Shown piece by piece: positions 25,403-26,475 of a stretch of 64,000 nucleotides of DNA (position 1 is its first letter; every line of letters begins with the position of its first letter). A program made the translations under genes and the position numbers. Origin of the DNA: Escherichia coli (GTDB taxonomy: Bacteria > Pseudomonadota > Gammaproteobacteria > Enterobacterales > Enterobacteriaceae); the NCBI RefSeq assembly GCF_003334305.1, contig NZ_QOWS01000017.1. One strand, given 5' to 3'. Under the pieces are notes generated by a model. It saw nothing but the letters and a program-made list of their open reading frames with translations, searched no databases and was not told the origin of the DNA.

Positions 25403-26475
25403 ACGCCACCGTGTACAGTTTTAAAAAAAAGAGAGGCACACCCAGATAAGTATGCCTGCAATCAGAACGTTATCGATGTAATCTCATTATCTCATTATTA
25501 AGATTTTTTGAATAGTAGTTCTACGCAACAGATTAAATATGAACTATTTATTGTGCAGCTTTTCTACAAGTCATTTTTAATGCGTGTTTTTATCTACAGT
25601 GATGTGAGAAAATAAATATAAAAGCTATGAACTACAGGGCGTGGGGGATGTGTGTTACGTCTAATCTTTTAGTGATGTTTAGTAGTTTTGAGATATTTGA
25701 CGTTATTTCTTATGAGGTTGTTTTTATTATTATCTTATTGATTTTATATGCATTTTGTCGTTCTGTGAAGTTAGGGTGTAGAAAATAAAAATTTAATATT
25801 ATTCCCGTTAATTTACAATAACACATTGTTGTAAGATATTTTTTAGTCGTAAGTAAATCATTATTGATGGGTTCTGCTAATAAATTAAAGATGTTCTCTT
25901 AAATAGTTTTTTGCTTTTTGTAAATATCAATTTGTTTATTTTTGATTCATTTGCTGGAGAGTATTTCAACAATTTTTATTTTTCGCATAAACTTATTAAC
26001 AACTTTTTATTATCAATTGAAAATTAATGTAAAATAAAATGTTAGCGAAGCGATAATCTTGTGCTAAAAAATATTTAAGCATGATGATTAATTAAAGAAG
26101 AGTAAAAATAAATCACTGCCAATAAATTATACGAATCGTGTTTAAAGCTCCACGTTGTTTTGGTCTGACTTATTTTTGTCCTCGTTTCAAGAACCCTTTT
26201 CGTATATGCTAACCGTGAGCGGGAGTGAACAAGTCACCATAGCCAGGAACACTAGCGGCGTAATTCTTAAGCTGAGTGGCATTTCACCTGCGGTTTATCA
26301 GTGCATTCATAGCACCTTCATCAGCCAGATTGAACGAGTCCGCTTAGAATTTGCTGGCGAGGTTGTCACTATGAAGCATGAGAGTTACCCCTATGTTTTA
26401 TATAACGATTCTGTCCCCATACCTGGAACGGTAACTCTCAATCAGATCGGTTCTTGAGTCAGTTCAAATCACGAC

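Follow-up and report, generated by a model that had tools for sequence, protein, structure and literature searches.

Escherichia coli DNA between ipbA (fimX) and betA: a non-coding, AT-rich end of the island PAI-X with a probable role as leader and control DNA of the invertase gene

Analysis of a 64,000-nucleotide stretch of Escherichia coli DNA (the window) placed an intergenic region at 25403-26475, between two genes of the minus strand: a Fim-family tyrosine invertase ORF with its ATG at 25402, and betA, whose stop codon starts at 26476. This region, hereafter the spacer, is 100% identical in E. coli strain A7, where RefSeq annotates ipbA at 24782-25402 (minus strand) and betA at 26476-28146 (minus strand); A7 was used for annotation, as its spacer and hyxS region are identical to those of the window. 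The gene order hyxB/upaB, hyxA, hyxR, ipbA/fimX, taken from the ORFs of the window and the RefSeq annotation of A7 and CFT073, matches that of PAI-X, which consists of four genes (fimX and hyxRAB) inserted between ykgH and betA with a G + C content of about 43% (PMC3789825; PMC4844996). Judged by its sequence, the locus is therefore this PAI-X or UpaB cluster (hyxB/upaB, hyxA, hyxR, the hyxS switch, and ipbA, also called fimX or hbiF), lying between ykgH and betA. A preliminary description of the window, made from the letters alone, had not named the island, although it is the published one (PMC3789825; PMC4844996). Chromosomal site, genes, gene order, and the hyxS inverted repeats are all shared with published PAI-X; unlike it, this strain's copy carries a dead ipbA.

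Identity of the spacer to its counterparts in CFT073, O157:H7, and approximately 1800 other complete genomes is 87-100%. It has no paralogue in E. coli chromosomes, which rules out a repeat or mobile element, and its matches in the plasmid collection were three records of 1.2-4.9 Mb that are presumably chromosomes. No description of the spacer itself was found in the accessible PAI-X literature, and a search on the CFT073 locus tags returned nothing relevant. Eight alleles were compared and fell into three families, represented by the window, O157, and XH990; by CFT073, E1005, and FDA1260; and by SCU-171 and STE15. Escherichia sp. MOD1-EC7003 carries a fourth allele family. The features of the locus are as follows, with identities given between families.

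24544-24833, no strand: hyxS invertible element, between ipbA and hyxR, with arms at 24544-24568 and 24809-24833 that are 88% complementary
24782-25402, minus strand: ipbA (fimX, hbiF), tyrosine invertase, a pseudogene whose ORF stops after 161 aa
25403-25620, minus strand: ipbA-proximal conserved block, 92-97% identity
25423-25457, minus strand: putative intrinsic-terminator-like hairpin, from a consensus scan
25621-25860, no strand: hypervariable AT-rich core with discrete allele classes, 67-74% identity and indels
25627-25788, plus strand: 53-codon ORF within the hypervariable core, judged spurious
25861-26039, no strand: moderately variable segment of 20% G + C, 77-88% identity
25996-26082, minus strand: 28-codon ORF, open in all ten sequences compared, judged not coding
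26040-26180, minus strand: conserved distal block, 92-97% identity
26155-26457, plus strand: 100-codon ORF with a TTG start that crosses the junction of island and core, judged not a gene
26181-26369, no strand: island-end segment of 48% G + C, non-coding, 79-92% identity
26370-26475, no strand: core chromosome, 3' flank of betA, shared with K-12 and including a 10-bp inverted repeat without mismatches (26380-26389 and 26430-26439)

The preliminary description missed that the recombinase gene, ipbA, is a pseudogene here. Codon 162, an Arg codon in CFT073, is TGA, and this premature stop falls upstream of the conserved HTVRYT motif, which in this family holds the catalytic Tyr. Near the 3' end of the gene, a run of A8 is reduced to A7 and shifts the frame, and the reading frame would then run on through the right-hand hyxS repeat. 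RefSeq also marks ipbA as a pseudogene with an "internal stop" in A7, the strain with the identical spacer. In FDAARGOS_1260, a 206-aa ipbA is annotated as intact. Because ipbA has a premature stop, the spacer probably no longer controls a working recombinase in this strain. The importance of the spacer for the window is accordingly limited: the island, its position, and the hyxS switch have already been published, and the recombinase is inactivated here.

The base composition of the spacer is uneven. Positions 25403-26150 have a G + C content of 27.3%, the minimum over all 748-bp stretches of the 64-kb window (mean, 49.3%), and only 0.16% of such stretches are as low. The AT-rich stretch is thus real and far beyond chance. 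The last 325 bp of the spacer are not AT-rich, with 46.6% G + C at 26151-26369 and 41.5% at 26370-26475. The strongly AT-rich spacer of about 1.1 kb that had been described is consequently correct in composition, but its AT-rich part is approximately 750 bp long.

The difference between 27.3% and 49.3% G + C provides the AT-richness expected of a region bound by H-NS, and DNA of 27% G + C in a 49% background inside an acquired island resembles H-NS-silenced xenogeneic DNA. In a scan for the high-affinity H-NS motif, the spacer was at chance level, so that the likeness is one of composition alone. The scan found one site with one mismatch in the spacer, on the same bases as a TATAAT hexamer at 26131-26126. 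On compositional grounds, binding of H-NS to the AT-rich stretch is plausible.

The island has no counterpart in K-12 and is carried by about 35% of complete E. coli genomes, which agrees with the earlier view of horizontally acquired DNA. When the K-12 intergenic region between ykgH and betA (212 bp) was aligned with the window, it split into two pieces, one ending at 20386 and the other beginning at 26370, with one shared base at the join. Therefore, the island occupies 20387-26369, and its junctions with respect to the K-12 empty site are 20386/20387 and 26369/26370. The right junction, now fixed to the base, lies inside the spacer 106 bp before the betA stop codon, and the interval of the preliminary description comprises 967 bp of island and 106 bp of core DNA. 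That description had placed the right boundary of the island in this interval, next to the 3' end of betA, and had proposed alignment with an island-less strain as a check; the K-12 alignment supports the placement. Neither a target-site duplication nor terminal repeats were seen at the island ends. The spacer is thus the non-coding end of a known island and, as such, an ordinary feature.

Two short symmetrical sequences lie close to the junctions. The 10-bp inverted repeat of the core flank, GAGAGTTACC ... GGTAACTCTC, starts 10 bp from the right junction with its arms 40 nt apart and is also found in K-12; as no run of T comes after it, it does not form a canonical terminator. A near-perfect palindrome, CCTGCAGGCAGCAGTATGCTGCCTGCAGG, is located at 20398-20426, approximately 10 bp inside the left junction and just 3' of hyxB, and is probably the hyxB terminator.

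Comparison of the alleles demonstrated that the spacer is a mosaic of conserved and variable segments. In the ipbA-proximal block, 78-100% of the columns were invariant in 40-column windows starting at 25380-25580; 25403-25620 is presumed to be the 5' leader and proximal control region of ipbA. Its conservation may reflect linkage to the near-invariant ipbA or recent recombination rather than selection. Divergence at third codon positions between families was 8-13% in betA and 1-5% in ipbA, and the core is only 67-74% identical; therefore, the core is more diverged than nearby silent sites. Core identities were also bimodal: of 1891 genome records, 797 were at least 95% identical, 1094 were 60-80% identical, and none lay between. 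This bimodality fits an old polymorphism or the replacement of non-coding DNA. In terms of divergence, the core (25621-25860) differs by 26-33% between families, beside an ipbA that is 98-99% identical.

At the betA end, the segment 26181-26369 is possibly a decayed relic. After 26206, the allele of SCU-171 and STE15 has an indel of 96 bp; the additional 96 bp of SCU-171 are single-copy and occur in 86 genomes. A 28-nt pattern from the distal block had no exact match in the representative genomes of 100,044 species, and among the same representatives IpbA occurred in one further genome only, that of Escherichia sp. MOD1-EC7003. Four points are mildly new and descriptive in kind: the junction to the base, the discrete alleles of the hypervariable core, the hairpin ahead of the ribosome-binding site, and the conservation of the distal block; this assessment covers the accessible literature, and parts of them may already be published.

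The hairpin at 25423-25457 has the sequence form of a Rho-independent terminator, a G + C-containing stem-loop followed by a T-run. It consists of a 10-pair stem at 25457-25434 with four G-C pairs, a 4-nt loop, and then CTC and T8, with 20 nt between the end of T8 and the ipbA start codon. The stem is present in the predicted minimum-energy fold and in all alleles compared, with a U.G pair replaced by C-G in SCU-171 and Escherichia sp. MOD1-EC7003. Between the hairpin and the ATG at 25402, a Shine-Dalgarno-like GGTGG is located 5-9 nt before the ATG and is likely the ribosome-binding site of ipbA. The folding energies of the leader were not unusual compared with shuffled sequence (z = -1.2 to -1.4).

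On the minus strand, a perfect -10 hexamer, the TATAAT at 26131-26126, faces ipbA about 725 bp upstream of its ATG. It is the sole promoter-like site kept in all eight alleles compared, and it has a poor -35 element at a spacing of 15 bp. A consensus promoter scan of the spacer gave no more sites than shuffled sequence. It had been stated that the interval must contain the recombinase promoter; such a promoter is plausible, but betA is read in the same direction as ipbA, and the one site shared by all eight alleles is distal, with a poor -35. No published account of ipbA/fimX control was found in the accessible literature, and a published promoter map may exist.

Control regions of other Fim recombinases offer a comparison. 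In E. coli K-12, the nanC-fimB region is a 1.4-kb AT-rich control region with distant NanR, NagC, and IHF sites and control by H-NS. The spacer likewise places long AT-rich non-coding DNA directly upstream of a Fim-family recombinase gene, over about 1 kb compared with 1.4 kb, and one of its conserved blocks lies about 650-780 bp away from the ATG. Unlike in a homologous pair, there is no detectable similarity outside the recombinase coding region, and the resemblance is one of analogy. Homology to the fimB or fimE control regions was ruled out since only the coding regions align. Sites for regulators of the NanR, NagC, or IHF type are named for nanC-fimB, and none was identified in the spacer.

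Taken together, the interval is the non-coding right-hand end of PAI-X plus 106 bp of core DNA, with a likely role as cis-regulatory and leader DNA of ipbA. The spacer would supply one or more promoters and the 5' leader for ipbA, the gene of the invertase that acts on hyxS and fimS. A -10 element facing ipbA would lie in the conserved distal block; we infer promoter use from the position and conservation of this element. The long AT-rich stretch would be free to vary and is probably covered by H-NS, as is other AT-rich foreign DNA of E. coli. The proximal leader would end in the terminator-like hairpin just before the ribosome-binding site. Since betA is co-directional with ipbA, termination at this hairpin could shield the gene from transcripts entering from upstream, those of the betIBA operon among them; alternatively, the hairpin might act as an attenuator. 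The segment 26181-26369 would then be a decayed, non-coding tail at the island edge. Several observations weigh against a regulatory reading, namely the promoter scan at the level of shuffled sequence, the weak context of the conserved TATAAT (poor -35, 15-bp spacing), the possibility that recent recombination explains the conservation of the proximal block, the unremarkable leader fold, and the lack of homology to the fimB and fimE control regions. The hairpin, the conserved distal block, and the bimodal core alleles nevertheless provide leads for studying the regulation of fimX.

A more specific version holds that ipbA is read from the distal TATAAT through a leader of approximately 700 nt, with the hairpin adjusting the amount of recombinase as a conditional attenuator and the core providing allele-specific control. 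The TATAAT is the only promoter-like element in eight of eight alleles and sits in a block of 92-97% conservation flanked by more variable DNA, and the hairpin occurs in every allele with a change that strengthens its pairing. However, the same hexamer has the poor -35 and 15-bp spacing noted above, the z-score of the fold is not significant, and neither an alternative antiterminator nor a leader peptide was found in the ORF list or by inspection. Long untranslated AT-rich leaders are also prone to Rho termination, which counts against such a transcript. We therefore regard this version as unlikely, and its corollary as equally so, that long-leader control of ipbA/fimX sets the phase switching of hyxS and fimS, with core alleles (non-B2, B2, and others) that differ by lineage. 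If it were true, the lineages of E. coli would regulate a near-identical recombinase through different alleles of its control DNA.

The hairpin could instead terminate an independent small RNA, encoded on the minus strand by the proximal block and ending at 25423-25457. In favour are the terminator-like hairpin with its T8 run and the approximately 180 nt of strongly conserved DNA ahead of it, but no conserved promoter lies upstream on the minus strand, and a search of 24000-27000 on both strands against Rfam 15 gave no match at E values up to 1. The structure is no more stable than that of shuffled sequence, and the conservation equals that of the adjacent ipbA and may be simple linkage. The suggestion that the interval could encode a small RNA thus finds no backing in the Rfam search or in the leader fold (z = -1.2 to -1.4), and we consider this reading improbable, more so than the long leader.

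The preferred reading of the spacer as control and leader DNA agrees with the absence of coding potential. Nothing in the interval is under protein-coding constraint, and this applies to all three of its tempting ORFs. For the 100-codon ORF (26155-26457), no Pfam or NCBIfam match was obtained. A search of 5.8 billion proteins matched 42 short proteins at 73-98% identity, the source names given being all E. coli hypothetical proteins; two of the contigs behind these matches were examined, and both represented the same locus beside betA. The search gave no homologues beyond E. coli and no Pfam domain. Across the three allele families, the pN/pS of this frame was 0.59-0.69 vs 0.39-1.07 in the five other frames, so that it lies inside the out-of-frame range and gives no sign of purifying selection. 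The ORF is 93 aa in CFT073, is interrupted in the SCU-171/STE15 family by stop codons and by the 96-bp indel, and has no Shine-Dalgarno motif by sequence inspection. The preliminary description had listed it as lacking recognisable features, which is borne out: the ORF exists, with neither a family match nor a Pfam domain.

The 53-codon ORF (25627-25788) appears in RefSeq as a hypothetical protein of 44 aa in O157 and XH990 and as a frameshifted pseudogene in A7. At the equivalent place, CFT073 has no ORF of at least 30 aa and SCU-171 has no corresponding one, and the ORF had no NCBIfam match. In the 28-codon ORF (25996-26082), variable sites were distributed over codon positions 1, 2, and 3 as 6, 8, and 3, and most changes alter the amino acid; there is neither a third-position excess nor a Shine-Dalgarno motif.

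It could be argued that one of these ORFs, 26155-26457, 25627-25788 (44-53 codons), or 26082-25996, encodes a small protein, as all three are open in this strain, the second is annotated as hypothetical in some RefSeq records, and the 28-codon ORF stays open in every allele examined. Against this, the pN/pS of the 100-codon ORF is indistinguishable from that of the wrong frames, this ORF runs across the island junction and is interrupted in one of the allele families, the 28-codon ORF shows the 6/8/3 pattern, and there are no homologues outside E. coli, no domains, and no visible Shine-Dalgarno motif. The small protein proposed earlier is therefore not supported: family and homologue searches, pN/pS or codon-position counts, and frame conservation gave negative results for the three ORFs, and we rate it as very improbable. 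The statement that the interval holds no convincing ORF stands, since each of the three either gives no sign of purifying selection or is not maintained across the allele families. Thus, the three ORFs, including the one annotated as a hypothetical protein in RefSeq, can be set aside.

The real switch of the locus is hyxS, on the other side of ipbA from the spacer. It has 16-bp inverted repeats and is inverted by FimX only (PMC6083910). The window carries its majority orientation, as 1782 of 1893 records matched over at least 80% of the query. As a positive control, a query inverted in silico matched flipped hyxS end to end in 15 of 1892 genomes, and with this query the median number of places per genome rose to 2. 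Because flipped hyxS was detected, the method would have seen an inversion of the spacer. None was found: the spacer query hit 2033 places spread over 2030 records, and the core query hit 1891 places, one for each of 1891 records. A Fim-type switch has a pair of well-matched inverted repeats on either side of some 200-350 bp, and 25403-26475 holds no such pair; its repeats are only 70-88% complementary, consist almost wholly of A and T, and do not resemble the hyxS arms. When each Fim recombinase was over-expressed, mapping of inversions over the whole genomes of UTI89 and CFT073 yielded only fimS, hyxS, and ipuS (PMC6458436). The spacer is like these three elements in being AT-rich and adjacent to a Fim-family invertase; unlike them, it lacks strong inverted repeats and shows a single orientation throughout about 2000 genomes. 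A further invertible (phase-variable) element under IpbA or other Fim recombinases, which the adjoining invertase and weak AT-rich repeats such as 25898-25914/26063-26079 (88% complementarity) might suggest, is the least probable of all readings and already largely refuted by the lack of inverted pieces, the control, and the over-expression mapping, so an additional phase switch in the spacer can be excluded.

With respect to hyxS itself, approximately 270 bp of the element is missing in at least two complete genomes (H111 and H112) and in Escherichia sp. MOD1-EC7003 (L016). This loss fits recombination between the directly repeated half-sites at 24538-24569 and 24809-24840.

Other strains show further changes at the locus. 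In O157:H7 strain 7636 (L003, 3096-4356 and 5313-6940), the island has decayed, with hyxB split and truncated and hyxR and ipbA present as pseudogenes, and the spacer is still 96% identical to that of the window. E. coli S1-IND-01-B has an IS1 inside the spacer (L012, 3124-3900) at the position corresponding to about 26097 of the window. Immediately after the IS1 come a truncated MFS transporter gene and lacZ; therefore, the betA side of the spacer has been deleted or rearranged in this strain, presumably together with tens of kilobases beyond. Finally, ehaA, the second gene for an autotransporter adhesin, is found immediately past betT, from about 32968 of the window onward (L001, 14566-15073, in a strain with the identical spacer), and is also preceded by an AT-rich stretch, with about 31% G + C at 32400-32999.
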